64,000 nucleotides of DNA from Vulcanimicrobiota bacterium (GCA_050250895.1 JBFWNU010000001.1:648008-712007), one strand, 5' to 3'. Numbered from the stretch's first letter, positions 12,687-21,503 are shown. Notes: generated by a model from the letters alone, not told the origin. Numbers and translations: made by a program.

Positions 12687-12857
12687 GCTTGCATTCTAAA
12701 GGCTCTGACCTGCCCAACGGCTGCCCAGATGGTGTCGACGTGAACAGCTCATTGCCGAAGCGTTAACTGGGGCGGGAAGAAGAGTGGGCGAGGGCGAAGG
12801 AATAAGATGTACGACTTGACGACGGGACTAGCCAAGTGATTCACAGGGGAGGTAGTT

Positions 12858-13886
12858 TTGAAGGTCTGCCTGGTTCTCACCCACCAATGCAATCTCGGTT
12901 GTAGCTACTGTTACGCGGGCGAAAAGTTCAAACGCACGATGAGCTACGAGTCGGGCCTCAAGAGTCTCGCTCTGGCTTTCTCGAAGGAAGGGCCTGTCGA
13001 AGTCTCGTTTTTTGGCGGCGAACCGATGATCGCCTTCGCTCAGATGGCCGCCCTCACCCGGGTGGCCCGCCGCTGGGCCGACCGCGCCGGTCGCCAACTG
13101 CGCTTCGCGGTCACCACCAATGCCACGATCCTCAACGAAAAGCACCTCAATTTCTTGCGCGACTACAACTTCTTTGTCGGCATTTCGGTGGACGGCGTCG
13201 AGGAAGAGCATGATCGCCATCGCCCCTTCGTGGGGGGACGAGGCTCCGGCGACCTGGTCTGGCGCAATCTCGAACGGGCCGCCCACTATCTCGACGATTT
13301 TCGGGTCTTGATGGTGGTCCGCCCCGACACCGTGGCCCGCCTGCCCGAAGCCATCGAGCGAATGTACCGCCTGGGCGTCTCGAAGGTTTCGCTCTTGCCC
13401 GAAACCGAAGCCGATTGGAGCGAGTCGCGCCATCTTCTCTCGGACGTCTACCAGCAACTGGCCCGTGTCTGCTACTTCTCGATGATGACCGACGAGCCCA
13501 TGTATATCAGCCCCTTCGCCGAACTGCATCCTCACCTTCGCAGCAACGGCAACGGCGGCGGTCGTGGTGGCTGCAACTTCGGCCGCGACGAGGTGGCCGT
13601 CTCGCCCGCCGGCAACTTCTACCCCTGCGCCCGTCTGGTCGGCCCCGATACTCGCCCCGAGGTGCGCATCGGCAATCTGGAGAACGGCTTTGACCTGGCC
13701 CGCATCGAAGAGCTCAACAGCTGTTCTGAGGCCAGCCTCTCCAAGTGCGGCAGCGGAGGCTGCAAGTGCCTGGCCCTGATGCCGGGCGATGTCGACTATC
13801 AGCTGGTCAACGTCAAGATGTTCACGGACGTCACCGGTGAGGCGTGCCGCGCCGCCGCAGCCTGCCTCGAAGAGGTGGCCGCGTGA
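12858..13886 (+). CDS. Radical SAM/SPASM(-twitch) enzyme, anSME-like; probable peptide/protein maturase
   Basis: CNLGCSYC (CxxxCxxC), FFGGEP, TTNAT and ISVDG. SPASM-type C-x12-G-x4-C (CNFGRDEVAVSPAGNFYPC) followed by further Cys. TTG start after a GGGGAGG RBS. Confidence 0.93.
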   Translation: MKVCLVLTHQCNLGCSYCYAGEKFKRTMSYESGLKSLALAFSKEGPVEVSFFGGEPMIAFAQMAALTRVARRWADRAGRQLRFAVTTNATILNEKHLNFLRDYNFFVGISVDGVEEEHDRHRPFVGGRGSGDLVWRNLERAAHYLDDFRVLMVVRPDTVARLPEAIERMYRLGVSKVSLLPETEADWSESRHLLSDVYQQLARVCYFSMMTDEPMYISPFAELHPHLRSNGNGGGRGGCNFGRDEVAVSPAGNFYPCARLVGPDTRPEVRIGNLENGFDLARIEELNSCSEASLSKCGSGGCKCLALMPGDVDYQLVNVKMFTDVTGEACRAAAACLEEVAA

Positions 13887-14209
13887 GCGAAGACAAAATC
13901 AAAAGGCGCCGCTTCCTGGCTGACGTGCTATTCGCTGGCGGCGGGCTGACCGCGGCTGCTTTCCTGGCCAAGGCCGGCTTTGACCGCGACCAACCCGACC
14001 AACTGCCCGGAGCGGTGGCCGTGCCCAACGACGGCCAAACGCCGACCTGCGAAGAGACCCCGAGCTGTGCGCCCACCCCCGACGATCCCAGCCTGGGCGG
14101 CGAACCGATGCCCCCCGAGCCCCCCATGCCCGGCCAAATGGCCCTGCCCCAGCAACCGCCCGAGGTCATCCCCGATGGTGACGTAGCCGCCCCCAGGGAG
14201 TGCAAATGA
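13883..14209 (+). CDS. Precursor/substrate paralogue P1 (twin-arginine leader + Pro-rich core), 108 aa
   Basis: GTG start overlaps the rSAM TGA (GTGA). Leader MSEDKIKRRRFLADVLFAGGGLTAAAFLAKA. Confidence 0.88.
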   Translation: MSEDKIKRRRFLADVLFAGGGLTAAAFLAKAGFDRDQPDQLPGAVAVPNDGQTPTCEETPSCAPTPDDPSLGGEPMPPEPPMPGQMALPQQPPEVIPDGDVAAPRECK

Positions 14210-14559
14210 GCGACGACAAGATCAAGAGACGCCGATTTCTAGCAGATGTGCTCTTCGCTGGCGGCGGACTGACGGCAGCGGCTTTTCTGGCCAAAGCCGG
14301 CCTGGACCGTCACGAGCCCAACCCCGGCGTAGCCGGCGACATGAAAATGCCCCAACCCGCCAACACTCCGGTGGCCTCGCCCACCTGCGAAGACCCCGAG
14401 ATCGAGGGCGACGTAGCCCTGCCCGAACCCGAGCAGACCCCCTGCGAAAAGCCGCCCCTCACGCCCCAAGACGAGCCCAACGTGGCCGGCGGCATGCGCC
14501 CGCCCCAACCCCCACCCGAGGCACTGCCCGGCCGAGTCGCCGTGCCCCGTGACCAATGA
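14206..14559 (+). CDS. Precursor/substrate paralogue P2, 117 aa
   Basis: ATGA overlap with the P1 stop and an AGGGAG RBS. Leader MSDDKIKRRRFLADVLFAGGGLTAAAFLAKA. Confidence 0.88.
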   Translation: MSDDKIKRRRFLADVLFAGGGLTAAAFLAKAGLDRHEPNPGVAGDMKMPQPANTPVASPTCEDPEIEGDVALPEPEQTPCEKPPLTPQDEPNVAGGMRPPQPPPEALPGRVAVPRDQ

Positions 14560-14891
14560 TGAGCAAAGGCAAGACTCGGCGCCGACGCTTTCTCGCCGAT
14601 CTGCTCTTTGCCGGCGGGACACTCACTGCCGTGGCCTTTCTGGCCAAGGTCGGGGGGACCGTCGACCCACCCACCCCGGCGGGACTGGCCGCAAAGCCCG
14701 CCGCCTCGCCGTCCTTCCAAGAGTGCCCCGAGACTCCAGCCCTGGAGACGCGGGAACCCATCCCGGGCCCCGGAGACCAGGGCACCATCAAAGTTGGCGG
14801 CATGGTCAAGCTGCCGCGCCAAACTGGCAAGGAAGTTCTTCCTGCTAATATCACAAGCAAGCCGGTGACAAGAAGCTATGAGCGAAGATAA
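14556..14891 (+). CDS. Precursor/substrate paralogue P3 (most divergent), 111 aa
   Basis: ATGA overlap with the P2 stop. Leader MMSKGKTRRRRFLADLLFAGGTLTAVAFLAKV. Confidence 0.82.
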   Translation: MMSKGKTRRRRFLADLLFAGGTLTAVAFLAKVGGTVDPPTPAGLAAKPAASPSFQECPETPALETREPIPGPGDQGTIKVGGMVKLPRQTGKEVLPANITSKPVTRSYERR

Positions 14892-15207
14892 GATCAAAAG
14901 GCGCAGATTTCTGGCCGACGTGCTGTTCGCGGGCGGTGGCCTGACGGCCGCAGCCTTTCTGGCCAAAGCCCAGTTCGGCCAACCCGACCCGCCCCTCGTC
15001 AAGCCATCGCCGCGGGAAACCCCCACTTGCGCCCACCCCCCCGAGCCAGACCTCCGGGTCAAAGGCGAGGTGGCGCCACCCCAACCAGCACCGCCAACCC
15101 AGCCCGAGCCGGCTGTGCCCGGCAAAATGAAAGCCCCCAACCCCAGGCCGATCGAGCTTCAGCTCGAGGGCGAGGTAGAGATGCCTGAACCGAGGGAGTG
15201 CAAATGA
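14878..15207 (+). CDS. Precursor/substrate paralogue P4, 109 aa
   Basis: Leader identical in amino acid sequence to P1. Overlaps the end of P3. Confidence 0.88.
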   Translation: MSEDKIKRRRFLADVLFAGGGLTAAAFLAKAQFGQPDPPLVKPSPRETPTCAHPPEPDLRVKGEVAPPQPAPPTQPEPAVPGKMKAPNPRPIELQLEGEVEMPEPRECK

Positions 15208-15527
15208 GCGAAGACAAGATCAAACGCCGCCGATTTCTAGCCGACATCCTGTTCGCCGGTGGAGGCCTGACGGCCGCGGCCTTTCTGGCCAAAGCCCAGT
15301 TCGGCCAAACCTCGCCGACCGACGTGCCTCAAACCTGCGAGACTCCCACCAGCTGCCAATCGCCCGACATCGACGGCAACGCCGTCCCCCCCGTCGAACC
15401 CCACCCCGCCGGCGCCGTCGCGCCCCCTCAGCCCGAAGAGCCCCAACTCGAGGGCAAGGTCGCCCAACCCGTCCAGATCAAAGGCGACGTGGCCGTGCCC
15501 GATGACAGGCTAGAGGGACGACGGTAG
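15204..15527 (+). CDS. Precursor/substrate paralogue P5, 107 aa
   Basis: ATGA overlap with the P4 stop. Leader MSEDKIKRRRFLADILFAGGGLTAAAFLAKA. Confidence 0.88.
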   Translation: MSEDKIKRRRFLADILFAGGGLTAAAFLAKAQFGQTSPTDVPQTCETPTSCQSPDIDGNAVPPVEPHPAGAVAPPQPEEPQLEGKVAQPVQIKGDVAVPDDRLEGRR

Positions 15528-15561
15528 ACGGTAGACGGTAGACGGTAGACGGTAGACGGTA
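15520..15561 (+). repeat. Tandem heptamer repeat (GACGGTA)x6
   Basis: Six perfect copies read directly. The P5 stop codon spans the junction of the first two units. Confidence 0.95.
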
Positions 15562-15693
15562 GAGAGCCGCATCTCGCTGCCGGCTCGCTGCCGGCTCTCT
15601 CCTGTTTCCCTGACGGCGCCCGGGCCCGCCCACTCGAAGCTGGTGAGTTCCCCTCTCGACGGCGAAGCCGCCCAGAATGACGACGCGAAGCGT

Positions 15694-15995
15694 CGAGTAC
15701 CTCAAAACTCGAGGTGAGCCCAGCGAACCTCGCTCCCCTCTCGCTGGCGAGCGCAAGCGAAGCCAGCGCTCCCCTCTCCGGGCGCAGCCCGGCTCCTCTC
15801 TCGCGAGCAAAGCGAGCGCTCCCTTCTCGACGGCGAAGCCGTCGCGAGTACCTCAAAACTCGAGGTGAGCCCAGCGAACCTCGCTCCCTTCTCGCTGGCG
15901 AGCGCAAGCGAAGCCAGCGCTCCCCTCTCCGGGCGCAGCCCGGCTCCTCTCTCGCGAGCAAAGCGAGCGCTCCCTTCTCGACGGCGAAGCCGTCG
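15694..15995. repeat. Tandem direct repeat, 2 x 151 bp, built from small hairpins joined by CTCCYYTCT linkers
   Basis: Units 15694-15844 and 15845-15995 differ at one position. A partial copy lies at about 15650-15670. Confidence 0.92.
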
Positions 15996-15999
15996 CCCG

Positions 16000-16990: not shown

Positions 16991-18397
16991 TCAGGGCGTC
17001 GCCGCCGCAGTGGGACTCGCGGCCGGCGTCTCGTTCTTGGAGTAGAGCGGCGCGACGATTCCGCGCCACTCTTCCAGGGGATTGCCCGACGCATTGTAGA
17101 CAGGCTTGGCGCCGTTGTCAACTTGAGTGCTTCCATCCCGGAAAGCTCCCAGGCGAACGTGGCCCAGACTCTTGCCCGACTTGTCGAAAAACTCCAGGTC
17201 GGCGACAGGCTCCTTCAGTTCCGCCGTTTGAGGCAAAGATTCCTCCCAACGAAGGTCCTTGATCTTCCAGAGCAGATCGGTCACTTCGGCGCCGTTATCG
17301 GAGTGGGCCGGCTCGCTGACCTTCCAGCCACCGCTGGTGCGTTTGGCTTCGAGCTTGTAGTCGCCGAGATGCCCGGTGACTTTCTCGACGTTTTCGACCT
17401 CGAAGTCGACCAGGTGGCGCTCTTGGAACTCGTGCACTTCGGGGTGCAGCAATTTGGCCGCTTTGTCACCGAGCTCGACCACCATGGCTTCTTCAGGGTC
17501 GAGTCGGCGGACATAGTACATTCCCGGTTTGACGGCCACCTCCGGACCGATTTCCATCACGAAGGGGCGGGGGTTGTCCTCGAGGGTGGCCTCGACTCGC
17601 AGCCACGGATGGTCCCATTTGACCTTCTCGTCGGGGCCGAGAAAACGTCCACCGGAGAGAGACTTGAGTGCCCAGATGTAATCGTTGACCTGCTGGCGAT
17701 CGGCGGGTGCTTTGATGGGCTCGACCAGCGAGAACTCGACCAGCGGTTCCGGCTCGTCTTCATCCTTCTTCTCGTCTTTGGTTTCGGGCTTTTTGCCGTC
17801 AATCACCAGGGTGTTTGTCGGAGTCACCAGCTTGAGCTTTCTCACCTGGGCCGGAATCACCGGCATCGGACTCTTTTCGCGCAGCGCTTCGATGTCTTGC
17901 TCGAGAGTCTGGCCGAAGGCGCCAGCCACCATATAGATAGGTCCGCTGCCGCCCACCTGAGCATAAAAATTCTGGCCGTCAGGCGTGCGCGAGCCCAGCA
18001 CCAGGTCGTATTCGGCTCCGTCTTCGACATGCAACTTGAGACGATAGCTGGGCTGGTCGAGCCCAAACTCGGCCAAATCCTCGGGCTTGGGGGTCTCGAT
18101 GATCACCTTCTCGTGAGAGAGTTGGCCCAGGTCGTTGGCCAACTGATCCAGCTGGGCTGCGCTGAGCAGCTGCTGACCGAAGAGCCAGCGACCGTCATGA
18201 CGTTCGAAGACCAGCTTCTTGTCGGCTTCTTTAGCTTCGACTTCGAGACGGTCCACCTGGTTCTCTTCGACTTTGGCGAACAGGCGCTTGGCTAGAGCCT
18301 CTTTCTCGGCCTCGTCGGCCTTGTGCTTGGTCGACCAGACATAGAAGCCGGCCAGCCCGATGACCAGCACCAGCATAATCACAGTTGAACGGTTCAT
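16991..18397 (-). CDS. DUF4340 domain protein (Gld-type ABC accessory)
   Basis: N-terminal TM and LAEFGLDQP motif. Last member of the GldA/F/G-like operon. Confidence 0.75.
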   Translation of the reverse strand: MNRSTVIMLVLVIGLAGFYVWSTKHKADEAEKEALAKRLFAKVEENQVDRLEVEAKEADKKLVFERHDGRWLFGQQLLSAAQLDQLANDLGQLSHEKVIIETPKPEDLAEFGLDQPSYRLKLHVEDGAEYDLVLGSRTPDGQNFYAQVGGSGPIYMVAGAFGQTLEQDIEALREKSPMPVIPAQVRKLKLVTPTNTLVIDGKKPETKDEKKDEDEPEPLVEFSLVEPIKAPADRQQVNDYIWALKSLSGGRFLGPDEKVKWDHPWLRVEATLEDNPRPFVMEIGPEVAVKPGMYYVRRLDPEEAMVVELGDKAAKLLHPEVHEFQERHLVDFEVENVEKVTGHLGDYKLEAKRTSGGWKVSEPAHSDNGAEVTDLLWKIKDLRWEESLPQTAELKEPVADLEFFDKSGKSLGHVRLGAFRDGSTQVDNGAKPVYNASGNPLEEWRGIVAPLYSKNETPAASPTAAATP

Positions 18398-18406
18398 GAG
18401 CGGCCC

Positions 18407-19831
18407 CTAGCGAGAATTGTTGCGACCCGAGGCGGTCACGAAGCCGGTCACGGCTACCAGTAAAGGCACCAGGACCATACTCACCAAACGGATCCAGGCC
18501 AGCTGGTTATTCTCGAGCACCAGGGGCTTTGACTTGGACTCGTCATCCCGGATGGTAATCTGGTCGTCGGCCTCGGCCAGCCAGTTGACGGCATTAAGAG
18601 CCAGGTCGCGATTGCCGTTGAGGGCCAGCATATTGTTAGAAAAGCAGTCGATGTCGCCGAAGACCAGCAGCCGCTGCTCTTTAGGCTTGGCCTCGGGCTG
18701 GTCAGGCGCCGGGGTCTCGGTCGGTTTTGGCTGGTCGATCGTTCGGGTCACCGCTACTGCCAGTCCCAGCGAAACCGCCTTCTCGGCATCGGGGGTAAAG
18801 GCGAACTGGGTCTTGCCCACCACCTCGGAGAGGGGCACCGGGTAAGCGCTGGGAGGCGTCTTGATCAGCGGGTCGACGCGGAAGCCTTCCTTCTCGGTCC
18901 CCTTCTCGACGGGGCGGGCCAGGCGGAACAGGGTATTGGTCTTGAAATCGCGGGTGACGGGGCTGTTGGGCGAATAGACGGCGCCCACAGCGAAGACCGG
19001 CTCGGCGTTGACCAGAGCCGAAGCCTCGTCGATGATGACCTCGTCTTTCAGGTCGACTCCGTATTCGGCCACCAGTTCCTGATACTGCTTGGGAGTTTCC
19101 ATCTCGGCCGCCAGCATCAGGTGCCCACCGGCCTCGAGAAAGTCCTTCACCTTCTTGAGTTCGCCTTCGAGCATGGCGCTGGTGGGGCCGGCTAGAATCA
19201 AAGCGGCGGCATCCTTGGGTACTTCCTTTTCAGAGACCAGACTCAACGGCTCGGAAACGAAGCCCTCGGTAGCCAGAGCGGCCTTCCATTCCGAAACCGA
19301 GCCCTGGTCCTTCTGCTCGAGACCACGCTCGCCGTGACCCTGGACAAAATAGACCTTGCGCTCTTTAGAGTGCGAGAGCTTGAGCAAAGCCGAGGTGATG
19401 GCCGCCTCCTCCAAATTGGTGGCGCGCTCGCGCCGCTGGCCCGCTTCTTCGCCTTTGAATTCGAGCACGGCCTGACTATTGGTGCGCACCTCGAGTTCTT
19501 GAGCCAGCGTGGGCCGGCGCTCGACATCGTTAATCTCGTATTCGAACTTCCCGGGGTTGACCTTCTGATAGCGCTCCATCAGCGACTCGACCTCTTTGCG
19601 GCCCCGCCCGTCGGCCTCGAAGACCCAGGCTTTGACGGGCTTGTCCAACCGCCTGAGCAGGTCGAGGCTCTGTTGCGTGAGAGTGTTGCGCTGATTCTTG
19701 GTCAAGTCAAAGGTGTGCTGGTTCTGCTTGGAGATGGCCAGCACCAAAAAGTAGATGGACAAAGCCAGGGCGGCCGAGAAAACGGTAGAGAGAAAAAGCT
19801 TGCTGCGCCGATTCACGATTAGAGCCTCCAC
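18407..19831 (-). CDS. GldG-family ABC auxiliary component
   Basis: Motifs FDLTKNQRNTLT, KVYFVQGHGE, LVFGD and NRDLALNAVNWL, with N- and C-terminal TMs. Confidence 0.85.
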   Translation of the reverse strand: MEALIVNRRSKLFLSTVFSAALALSIYFLVLAISKQNQHTFDLTKNQRNTLTQQSLDLLRRLDKPVKAWVFEADGRGRKEVESLMERYQKVNPGKFEYEINDVERRPTLAQELEVRTNSQAVLEFKGEEAGQRRERATNLEEAAITSALLKLSHSKERKVYFVQGHGERGLEQKDQGSVSEWKAALATEGFVSEPLSLVSEKEVPKDAAALILAGPTSAMLEGELKKVKDFLEAGGHLMLAAEMETPKQYQELVAEYGVDLKDEVIIDEASALVNAEPVFAVGAVYSPNSPVTRDFKTNTLFRLARPVEKGTEKEGFRVDPLIKTPPSAYPVPLSEVVGKTQFAFTPDAEKAVSLGLAVAVTRTIDQPKPTETPAPDQPEAKPKEQRLLVFGDIDCFSNNMLALNGNRDLALNAVNWLAEADDQITIRDDESKSKPLVLENNQLAWIRLVSMVLVPLLVAVTGFVTASGRNNSR

Positions 19832-20577
19832 TTCCGGCTCTCGAGGATGCGCACTGTCAAAAACAGGAATAGCGCTGTCCAGGCCAGGTAGTAGACGATG
19901 TTATGGGTCGAGACATTGCCTCTGGCCATGGCCTCGACGTGCGACATCATCGACAGGTCACCGAAGGTCTCTTTGACGGCCGTGATCTGGTCGTCGAGAA
20001 TCATGATCAACCAGCTGGCCATCAGCCCGCCATAGCTCACCACGGCCGCGATCATCTGACTCGACGTGGTGCTCGAGGCCCACAGGCCAAAGGCCGTGAA
20101 GGCGGCTCCCAGCAGCAGCAGGCCGAGATAGCCCGACCCGATGAGCTTCCACTCGATGTCGGTGAGGCGACTGAGCATCACCACCGACACCGAACTGAAA
20201 GCCAACATGGTGGCCACCACCGTCTGCGCGGCAAAAAACTTGCCGCCCACGATCTGCCACTCGGTCAGAGGATAGGTGAACAGCATCTCGAGGGTGCCCG
20301 AGCGACTCTCTTCGGCGATGAGGCGCATCGTCAAGAGCGGCAGGATGAACAACATGAGAAAGCCCATCCACCATTGCACCGGCACCACCAGATCGTCCAT
20401 GACGTTGACGCTGCGCGCCATGAACGGATTCATACCGGCGCTCATGGAGTACTGCGAATAGCTGTTGACCATGCCGGTGAAGATCAGGCCCAGCACGAAC
20501 AGGTAGATGGCCATCAGCACCCAGGCCAGGCTCGAGTTGAAATAGGCGGCCAGTTCGCGCCGATAGATTGCCAGCAT
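19819..20577 (-). CDS. GldF-like ABC-2 permease
   Basis: Motifs RRELAAYFNS and PLLTMRLIAEESRSGTLEMLFTYP. Confidence 0.9.
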   Translation of the reverse strand: MLAIYRRELAAYFNSSLAWVLMAIYLFVLGLIFTGMVNSYSQYSMSAGMNPFMARSVNVMDDLVVPVQWWMGFLMLFILPLLTMRLIAEESRSGTLEMLFTYPLTEWQIVGGKFFAAQTVVATMLAFSSVSVVMLSRLTDIEWKLIGSGYLGLLLLGAAFTAFGLWASSTTSSQMIAAVVSYGGLMASWLIMILDDQITAVKETFGDLSMMSHVEAMARGNVSTHNIVYYLAWTALFLFLTVRILESRKWRL

Positions 20578-21503
20578 CAGTTGGCCTCCTTGCGCACGAT
20601 TTTGAGAAAGATGTCTTCGAGGCTCAAACTCTGGGGAGTCAGCTCGAGCAGGTCCCACTCTTGAGCGATCACGGTGCGAGCCAATTCGGCCCGCACATCC
20701 ACCCCGGTGTCGGATTCGACCTCGTAGAGGTTGCCCTCGACCTTGCGCACCTCATTAATGCCTTCCACGGTCCCTAGCACACTGGAAACCTTGTCGCTGT
20801 CGGTCCCCACCCGCACCAGGATGCGGGCCATGCCCTGCAGACTCGAGGTCAGGTTGCGAGGAGTGTCGATGGCCTTGATCTTGCCTTCGGCGATGATGAT
20901 GACCCGGCTACACGTGGCCGAGACCTCGGGCAGAATGTGAGTCGAGAGGATGACCGTGGACGATTCGGCCAGTTCCCGAATCAATTCGCGGATATCGCGG
21001 ATCTGGGCCGGGTCGAGCCCCACGGTGGGCTCGTCGAGGATCAAGACCTTGGGATTGTTGACGATGGCCTGAGCCAATCCCACCCGCTGCTTGTAGCCTC
21101 GGGAGATGGTGCCGATCAACTGGTTCTCGACCGAGCCCAGGTTGCAGCGGCCCATGGCCAGCTTGACGGCCTTCTCCCGCTCGCTGCCGGGAATGCCCTT
21201 GGCGGCGGCGGCAAAGGTCAAGAATTCTCGAGTGGTCATCTCGTGATAGAGCGGCACATGTTCGGGCAGGTATCCAACGCTGCGGCGCACCTCGATGGAC
21301 TCATCCGAGACGTCATGACCGGCGATGCTGGCTGTTCCCGAAGTCGGCGGGAAATAACCCGTCAGCATACGCATTGTAGTGGTCTTGCCGGCGGCGTTGG
21401 GGCCGAGGAAACCGAGGATCTCCCCCTTGTGGACCTCGAAAGTCAACCCGTCGACAGCCACTTTATCTCCGAAAACCTTCGTGAGCTTGTTAGCGGCAAT
21501 CAC
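20577..21503 (-). CDS. GldA-like ABC transporter ATP-binding protein
   Basis: Walker A GPNAAGKTT, signature ISRGYKQR, Walker B LILDEPT. Confidence 0.95.
   Translation of the reverse strand: MIAANKLTKVFGDKVAVDGLTFEVHKGEILGFLGPNAAGKTTTMRMLTGYFPPTSGTASIAGHDVSDESIEVRRSVGYLPEHVPLYHEMTTREFLTFAAAAKGIPGSEREKAVKLAMGRCNLGSVENQLIGTISRGYKQRVGLAQAIVNNPKVLILDEPTVGLDPAQIRDIRELIRELAESSTVILSTHILPEVSATCSRVIIIAEGKIKAIDTPRNLTSSLQGMARILVRVGTDSDKVSSVLGTVEGINEVRKVEGNLYEVESDTGVDVRAELARTVIAQEWDLLELTPQSLSLEDIFLKIVRKEAN

Follow-up and report, generated by a model that had tools for sequence, protein, structure and literature searches.

The window analyzed here is a stretch of 64,000 nucleotides from a Vulcanimicrobiota bacterium (GCA_050250895.1, JBFWNU010000001.1:648008-712007), and its positions 12858 to 15527 hold one plus-strand operon in which a gene for a radical S-adenosylmethionine (rSAM) enzyme of 342 amino acids is followed by five translationally coupled genes for small proteins of 107–117 amino acids, named W1 to W5. 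The operon encodes a real, conserved and apparently undescribed rSAM-peptide system, for which the best-supported interpretation is that the enzyme and the small proteins form an enzyme-substrate pair. Coordinates refer to the whole window, and the genes were called from the open reading frame (ORF) listing and the raw sequence. An earlier note on this DNA had described a single operon with overlapping stop and start codons, composed of the 342-residue enzyme and five downstream paralogues of 107–117 residues, and both parts of that description hold, since all five gene junctions overlap (in order, by GTGA, ATGA, ATGATGA, 14 nt, and ATGA). The features are listed below, where the leader is the shared N-terminal segment and the motif is the core repeat described later.

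12846..12852, plus strand: Shine-Dalgarno-like GGGGAGG, 5 nt upstream of the TTG start of the rSAM gene, read from the sequence

12858..13886, plus strand: radical SAM enzyme, 342 amino acids, TTG start, with CNLGCSYC as residues 11–18

13883..14209, plus strand: W1, 108 amino acids, beginning with a GTG that overlaps the stop of the rSAM gene (GTGA); leader at residues 1–31, three strict motif copies, three cysteines

14206..14559, plus strand: W2, 117 amino acids, ATGA overlap with W1; four motif copies, two cysteines

14556..14891, plus strand: W3, 110–111 amino acids, with its ATG at 14556 or 14559; leader 73% identical to the others, two motif copies, one cysteine

14878..15207, plus strand: W4, 109 amino acids, 14-nt overlap with W3; three motif copies, two cysteines

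15204..15527, plus strand: W5, 107 amino acids, ATGA overlap with W4; three motif copies, two cysteines; the partner used in the complex model

The reading that these ORFs are not real genes was rejected on the grounds of their conservation, their coupling and their GC content at third codon positions, which is 0.69–0.80 across all six genes. The first 31 residues of W1–W5 share the sequence MSEDKIKRRRFLADxLFAGGGLTAAAFLAKA and are 93–100% identical among W1, W2, W4 and W5, in line with the near-invariant 31-residue N-terminus originally reported; W3, the most divergent of the five copies, lies at 73%. The leader is conserved at the protein level and is under purifying selection: the 31 leader codons of W1 and W4 show 15 synonymous differences and one non-synonymous difference, and paralogue pairs in general, W3 aside, have 8–17 synonymous but 1–2 non-synonymous differing codons.

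The enzyme matches the radical SAM superfamily profile PF04055 at 68.5 bits (cut-off 29.5), and its C11-x3-C15-x2-C18 (CX3CX2C) motif is conserved in 81 of 81 relatives. Five further cysteines in the C-terminal part (C239-x12-G-x4-C257 and C297-x4-C302-x-C304) are conserved in 80–81 of the 81. The full SPASM pattern consists of seven cysteines, CX9-15GX4C ... CX2CX5CX3C ... C, for two auxiliary clusters, and two of the seven are missing in all 81 relatives. With five conserved C-terminal cysteines and not seven, the domain is therefore SPASM/Twitch-like, and PF13186 (SPASM) remains below its cut-off (15.2 bits versus 21.5, E 0.028). The previous designation as a SPASM enzyme is thus right for the rSAM family and the SPASM/Twitch-like fold, and too strict with regard to the cysteine count and the profile score.

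None of the curated families takes in the enzyme at its cut-off, and the peptides fall into no such family at all. Among the NCBIfam models, the strongest match is to PapB (NF047865), at 186.6 bits versus a cut-off of 340, with residues 3–308 aligned to profile positions 5–306 of 330; all other peptide-maturase NCBIfam models score below the PapB model, and TIGR03974 gives 115 bits versus a cut-off of 425. By sequence, the nearest solved structure is CteB (hmmsearch E 6.7e-40; CteB residues 99–405 aligned), and the AlphaFold2 model of the enzyme (pLDDT 86.9) has CteB (TMq 0.77–0.78) and anSME (0.71–0.74) as its top Foldseek matches. CteB, which matures SCIFF peptides (PDB 5wgg, 5why), shares the CX9-15GX4C element with the window's enzyme, but has an N-terminal peptide-binding domain (residues 1–98). 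[quoted passage not shown] The scan of ten flanking genes around the operon revealed no peptidase, and the sole transporter genes (ABC-2/GldG, ~18407–21503) lie on the opposite strand and outside the operon, so the description of an operon with no RRE, peptidase or dedicated exporter is upheld. The second structural neighbor, anSME, is likewise of the rSAM/SPASM type, is similar in size, has no RRE, and recognizes a short motif to modify a protein in the cytoplasm before export. However, the possibility that the enzyme is a sulfatase maturase next to sulfatases, which would have spoken against a new system, found no footing: TIGR03942 (anaerobic sulfatase maturase) scores 84.7 bits versus a cut-off of 349.45, no sulfatase occurs among the ten scanned neighbors, and the sulfatase-type C/S-x-P-x-R motif is absent from the cores.

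Of 39 candidates from a word-indexed search for the small proteins, 29 were relatives at E <= 0.01, several of them on contigs equal in length to those that carry close relatives of the enzyme. In the 28-member alignment R8, R9, F11, L12, A13, D14, L16, F17, A18, G19, and G20 are invariant. When a profile of the leader was searched against 1.84 billion cluster-representative proteins, there were 213 matches at E <= 0.001. Among the 150 matches listed, 149 are proteins of 55–194 amino acids, with the match starting within the first 11 residues in 144 of them, at residue 21–23 in four, and at residue 85 in one. The remaining one, P0150, a repetitive protein of 1261 amino acids with 18 matched stretches, was rejected as a spurious leader match. 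Since the other listed matches are all small proteins, the leader is the mark of one small-protein family and not a generic signal shared with enzymes.

The association of leader and enzyme was assessed in 201 genomes of the phylum, in which an enzyme match above 300 bits was counted as an orthologue. The leader profile matched 17 of these genomes (66 matches in all), and an rSAM orthologue was found in 18 (22 loci); the two occur together in 16 genomes, i.e., in 16 of the 17 that bear a leader. The single leader-only genome is 65% complete, and there are two enzyme-only genomes, one with the enzyme gene cut at a contig end and the other with no leader match at the threshold. Leader genes lie immediately downstream of the enzyme, as judged by coordinates, at 17 of the 22 orthologue loci. 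Among 80 loci from named genomes, which are the best 80 of 543 confirmed enzyme relatives, the leader profile matches seven, always directly downstream of the enzyme. Thus, an rSAM gene beside an array of precursors with conserved leaders and variable cores, which had been put forward as a general RiPP-type gene arrangement, does co-occur across genomes.

Array size varies from one to seven leader genes per locus, and the largest arrays seen, with seven tandem leader genes after the enzyme, are at L003 (7031–8866) and in genome G054 (contig 85, 15906–17606). At two loci (L005, 2666–3355, and L006, 7958–8614), a conserved protein of ~220 amino acids (...NDPALAMR...) follows the precursor genes; the records of these two loci are labeled Burkholderiales and Selenomonadaceae, which is odd for a system otherwise found in Vulcanimicrobiota.

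The genome from which the window comes (G000) has one copy of the enzyme and eight leader matches, five in the operon and three elsewhere (loci L086, L087, and L091), one of the three having a short core of ~25 residues past the hydrophobic stretch.

Contig 4, ~263311–263457, minus strand: unlinked leader match

Contig 6, ~122063–122311, minus strand: unlinked leader match

Contig 1, ~3209426–3209512, plus strand: unlinked leader match

The same genome carries a second rSAM gene of an unrelated clade (contig 2, 252504–253265, locus L089) in a 454-aa frame; its product shares 35% identity with the enzyme of the operon across the N-terminal half.

The cores of W1–W5 contain 16–28% proline (~25% in the wider family) and 0–2 aromatic residues each, which confirms that core aromatics are almost absent. 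They had been described as hypervariable and Pro/acidic, and they are indeed proline-rich and variable, but a repeated conserved motif had been missed. This motif of ~9 residues, [LVI]xG[DKE][VM]AxPxP, is present in two to four strict copies in each of W1–W5, and its fuller consensus is [Q/A/H]-[L/V/I]-[K/P/D]-G-[D/K/E]-[V/M]-A-x-P-[Q/E]-P. Enrichment was scored with the pattern G-x-[VMIL]-x-x-P and 1000 composition-preserving shuffles, giving 70 copies in 28 family cores versus 7.1 +/- 2.7 (maximum 19) in the shuffles; of the 160 cores in the wider family, 126 contain one motif copy or more and 79 contain two or more. Cysteine, by contrast, is not conserved, being absent from eight of the 28 close family cores and from 30 of the 160 wider family cores. 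With 30 of 160 family cores free of cysteine, thioether formation is improbable as the conserved chemistry, which is probably independent of cysteine altogether.

The cysteines that do occur in W1–W5 (1–3 each) nevertheless have to be weighed, since they suggest a ranthipeptide-type system, in which a PapB-like enzyme would join cysteine sulfur to a neighboring Asp or Glu at its beta or gamma carbon and the GxVAxP motif would be merely structural. Every cysteine in W1–W5 has an Asp or Glu 0–4 residues downstream, except for the C-terminal ...RECK cysteine of W1 and W4, and W5 contains one exact C-x3-D. The PapB study reports six motifs of the form Cys-X3-Asp/Glu in the PapA precursor and acceptance by PapB of Cys-Xn-Asp with n = 0–6 (PMC9413430). 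PapB/PapA, the freyrasin system among the ranthipeptides, is the best curated match and resembles the present one in its short rSAM maturase and in a precursor that repeats a short motif several times; the PapB model is also the top NCBIfam match for four distant rSAM relatives (167–193 bits), and the closest solved structure, CteB, is a thioether-forming maturase. However, the enzyme falls far short of the PapB cut-off, it has five rather than seven C-terminal cysteines, two of the SPASM cysteines being gone from every relative, and the peptides differ from PapA in a cysteine-free repeat motif, in many members without any cysteine (among them several distant partners), and in a signal-like leader. 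Further, the element conserved across clades contains no cysteine, the complex model described below places a motif copy and not a cysteine segment in the barrel, and in cores so rich in acidic residues the Asp or Glu near a cysteine may be there by chance. We consider PapB-like thioether formation unlikely, although it is a real rival for this particular operon. The statement in the earlier note that the system fits none of the described classes is therefore to be qualified: no curated family is matched above cut-off and no description was found in the literature searched, but PapB is the nearest match and the cysteines do lie near Asp or Glu.

Relatives of the enzyme at 30–39% identity are found in Planctomycetota, Kiritimatiellia/Verrucomicrobiota, Victivallales, and Myxococcota. 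The partner proteins at these loci have a different N-terminus, '...YP...(D/N)RRxF(L/M)...', and then a hydrophobic segment, in many cases with a lipobox-like cysteine at its end. With a profile of such 'YP...RRxF' N-termini, 14 of the 80 loci gave 21 matches; every one lies within 2.5 kb of the enzyme gene, with none farther away in the same loci, and five further partners were identified by eye. The distant partners are 155–267 amino acids long, some with a globular middle part and several without any cysteine. Among the 11 that were scanned, one passes the Tat (twin-arginine translocation) signal model TIGR01409 (23.3 bits versus 16.7), and no other curated family was matched. They carry the same motif as the window's cores (24 copies versus 5.3 +/- 2.2 in shuffles), and nine of 17 have a copy in their last 30 residues, e.g., ...PLDGDVAIPHYFD and ...PLDGDMPAPRF. 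The partnership is older than the leader type, in that adjacency and motif persist while the leader differs, and the pairing, which recurs in several phyla, probably marks an undescribed peptide-modification system. Since the distant partners are proteins of 155–267 amino acids with lipoprotein-like signals, protein maturation before export fits as well as a RiPP natural product.

In a Polyangiales sub-clade (L020, 255–917; L024, 2575–3219; L041, 5199–5852), a conserved protein of ~215 amino acids (MVRKSTMSGDPPSKK...) precedes the enzyme. The enzyme of this sub-clade is longer (over 400 amino acids) and is not preceded by a signal-bearing partner, and the ~215-aa upstream gene is unrelated.

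Modeling of the enzyme with a small protein supports the binding of one by the other. The complex was predicted from the enzyme (19-row alignment) and W5 (28-row alignment), both alignments being custom-made, and reached an ipSAE of 0.77 (median of three runs) versus 0.05 for the best control; the runs share at least 75% of contacts, and the partner pLDDT is at least 51. Among solved complexes, 58 of 80 attain the score mark applied, as do 2 of 110 mismatched pairs, a calibration that holds only roughly given the custom alignments. In the model, leader residues 1–31 contact enzyme helices at 163–173 and 200–223. The most confident contacts are between leader residues R8–F17 and the helices around enzyme residues 163–173 and 200–215, and the leader residues involved are those that are invariant in the family. 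Residues 79–92 of W5 (EPQLEGKVAQPVQI, which includes one motif copy, LEGKVAQP) contact the barrel strands, as well as enzyme residues 239, 258–259, and 297–305 around the auxiliary-cluster cysteines.

Inspection of the leader shows RRRFLAD, then LFAGGGLTAAAFL, then AKA, i.e., an RRxFL element, a Gly-rich hydrophobic stretch, and an AxA-type c-region. In Tat signals, the c-region contains a basic residue and AxA. TatC is encoded in the same genome (213.9 bits), and a look-up of W4 in the ESM Atlas gave sub-threshold leads (0.83–0.85) to fragments bearing Tat signals, which we treat as a lead only.

From these findings we infer modification of the peptides by the enzyme, with the motif as its site, and a leader that doubles as an export signal. 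On balance, it is somewhat probable that the operon encodes a two-component peptide-maturation system, in which the enzyme binds the leader and modifies the core motif independently of cysteine, and the product is exported by housekeeping machinery. In this scheme, the enzyme, lacking an RRE, would use the catalytic domain itself to bind the invariant segment (RRRFLADxLFAGG...) of each small protein, and the core motif [LVI]xG[DKE][VM]AxPxP would be threaded into the barrel beside the auxiliary Fe-S cluster, where it would undergo a radical modification that does not depend on cysteine. Candidate chemistries at the motif are epimerization, dehydrogenation, or a new cross-link. The leader, with its RRxFL, Gly-rich hydrophobic stretch and AKA, would also act as a twin-arginine or general export signal, and after modification housekeeping machinery would export the proline-rich product and signal peptidase would trim it, which would explain why the operon contains neither protease nor exporter. 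By binding the signal, the enzyme would retain the peptide until modification is complete, as Tat chaperones do.

Such an arrangement would resemble the mode of action of TorD, DmsD and NapD, cytoplasmic chaperones that bind a twin-arginine signal peptide and hold the substrate until maturation is done. These chaperones are non-enzymatic and unrelated in fold, so the likeness would be one of mechanism only. The closest precedent for precursors that bear a signal peptide is the bufferins, MNIO-modified RiPPs whose precursors of 80–120 residues carry a Sec signal peptide instead of having a dedicated exporter, and whose authors call such a signal peptide rare among bacterial RiPPs and found it dispensable for modification (PMC11626156). 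Unlike the bufferins, which rely on an MNIO enzyme and cysteine-dependent chemistry, the present system is predicted by the complex model to have an enzyme that binds the signal.

A number of observations weigh against this proposal. The ipSAE is the model's own confidence, and some of its height may stem from resemblance to solved rSAM-peptide complexes, which exist for CteB, SuiB, anSME, and ChlB. A strict motif copy is absent from 34 of the 160 family cores. At about 50 of the 80 distant loci, no partner was recognizable by filters, profile or inspection, a lack that may be real or may come from weak detection, and the separation of the window's clade from the distant clade was obtained from a rough neighbor-joining tree, computed plainly with Biopython and without support values, which shows clades only roughly. 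Within the phylum, 28 of the 66 leader matches are not beside an rSAM gene, and three paralogue-clade rSAM loci, two in G096 and one in G110, have no adjoining leader gene; the co-occurrence of leader and enzyme that the earlier note proposed to check therefore holds at the genome level and is weaker at the locus level, where 38 of 66 matches adjoin the enzyme. The 11 unlinked leader matches that were fetched all consist of the leader and a proline-rich core with the motif. With regard to export, the Tat hidden Markov models PF10518 and TIGR01409 match none of W1–W5 at E <= 0.1, and across the 28 family members they match three, with a best E of 4.9. Because these models miss the window's leaders, export and its pathway are deduced from likeness of motif only. 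The term twin-arginine leader thus finds backing in the RRxFL, hydrophobic and AxA elements and in the TatC of the genome, but not in recognition by the profiles, and it is possible that the leader is a signal-anchor or a purely cytoplasmic leader.

One form of cytoplasmic leader would be the double-glycine kind (...LFAGG), removed by an unlinked peptidase/transporter of the C39 type. Both glycines (G19 and G20) occur in every one of the 28 members, which qualifies the previous claim that no double-glycine leader is present, although no Nif11 or GG-leader family was matched, and one Peptidase_C39 domain is encoded elsewhere in the genome, on contig 7; the failure of the Tat models is also in line with such a leader. 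However, a C39 transporter is found neither within or beside the operon nor around the related loci inspected, and the conserved hydrophobic stretch runs ~11 residues past the two glycines and ends in AKA or ARA, like the h- and c-region of a signal peptide. The distant partners, moreover, have clear signals of RR, hydrophobic stretch and lipobox-like cysteine, one of which passes TIGR01409. A double-glycine leader is therefore very unlikely in our estimation.

The unlinked leader genes raise another alternative, namely that the small proteins are not substrates at all, and are instead proline-rich proteins of the envelope, secreted or anchored in the membrane, whose genes happen to lie in one operon with that of an rSAM enzyme directed at another target. 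An N-terminus that resembles an ordinary signal or anchor would agree with this, as would the Myxococcota partners, which are proteins of 155–267 amino acids with a lipobox-like cysteine. It is difficult to reconcile with the co-occurrence in 16 of 17 genomes, with an adjacency that is kept across clades of 30–39% enzyme identity despite the change of leader, and with the translational coupling of the genes. In addition, the invariance of the leader far exceeds the needs of targeting, the complex model passes against controls, and the nearest relatives of the enzyme are all peptide or protein maturases. We judge this alternative to be improbable, and retain the two-component maturation system as the preferred interpretation.

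As a presumed case of rSAM peptide or protein maturation, the system has a fair chance of constituting a new class. A more far-reaching version is that, in this new class, a Tat-type signal doubles as the leader and is clamped directly by the enzyme and thereby masked from the Tat machinery, as by a proofreading chaperone, that the enzyme installs a cysteine-independent modification on each [LVI]xG[DKE][VM]AxP before release for export by housekeeping machinery, and that the pairing is ancient across Vulcanimicrobiota, Planctomycetota, Verrucomicrobiota, and Myxococcota, with substrates ranging from arrays of ~100-aa proline-rich proteins to Tat lipoproteins. We put this forward tentatively, as a possibility that is rather doubtful in its full extent. 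No description of a pairing between an rSAM enzyme and a twin-arginine leader was found in the literature searched, the scope of which excluded supplements and subscription journals. Neighboring topics there include a 2026 paper on RiPPs of the lipoprotein pathway and another on thioether cross-links made in proteins by an archaeal SPASM enzyme.

If the proposal is true, it would mean an rSAM peptide chemistry that uses neither cysteine nor aromatic residues, and a leader recognition without an RRE in which the export signal serves as the recognition handle too, which would explain how a minimal system of two gene types manages without a dedicated protease and exporter. The system is found in poorly studied phyla with large genomes, with relatives in bacteria of the Planctomycetes-Verrucomicrobia-Chlamydiae (PVC) group and Myxococcota. 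Since the targets in these relatives look like exported lipoproteins, the reaction might serve generally in the maturation of envelope proteins, beyond any role in making natural products. For mining, two simple sequence handles are available, the motif and the leader.

The operon is flanked by genes on the minus strand. Upstream is a gene of the endonuclease/exonuclease/phosphatase family, and downstream are genes for a PfkB kinase, DUF4340, a GldG-like ATP-binding cassette (ABC) auxiliary protein, an ABC-2 permease, and an ATPase, of which the DUF4340, GldG-like, permease and ABC ATPase genes form a cluster (16991–21503, minus strand) convergent with the operon. None of the ten flanking genes of the window recurs beside the rSAM gene in the 80 related loci, except for four weak ABC-ATPase matches (23–29% identity) in three loci of the 80. 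Therefore, the conserved unit is the enzyme together with the small genes.

Seven sequencing runs each contain only 5–13% of the sampled words. RNA contigs from two libraries of one study cover 12822–13296 and 13518–13966, the latter bridging the junction of the enzyme and W1, and at roughly 90–94% identity to the window these contigs are from a relative. They are weak evidence that the operon is expressed in that relative, with DNA carry-over possible, and the stretches without RNA cover are uninformative.

Two repeats lie beside the operon. A perfect heptamer repeat, GACGGTA in 6.3 copies (15520–15563), begins in the last codons of W5 and spans its stop; in one metagenome run the depth over this repeat is ~950 (summed) versus ~10 for the operon, and the repeat is therefore common elsewhere. 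Farther downstream, between the operon and the convergent PfkB gene, there is a 151-bp tandem duplication (15694–15996) of 2.0 copies that are 99% identical, with an internal 25-bp sub-repeat.

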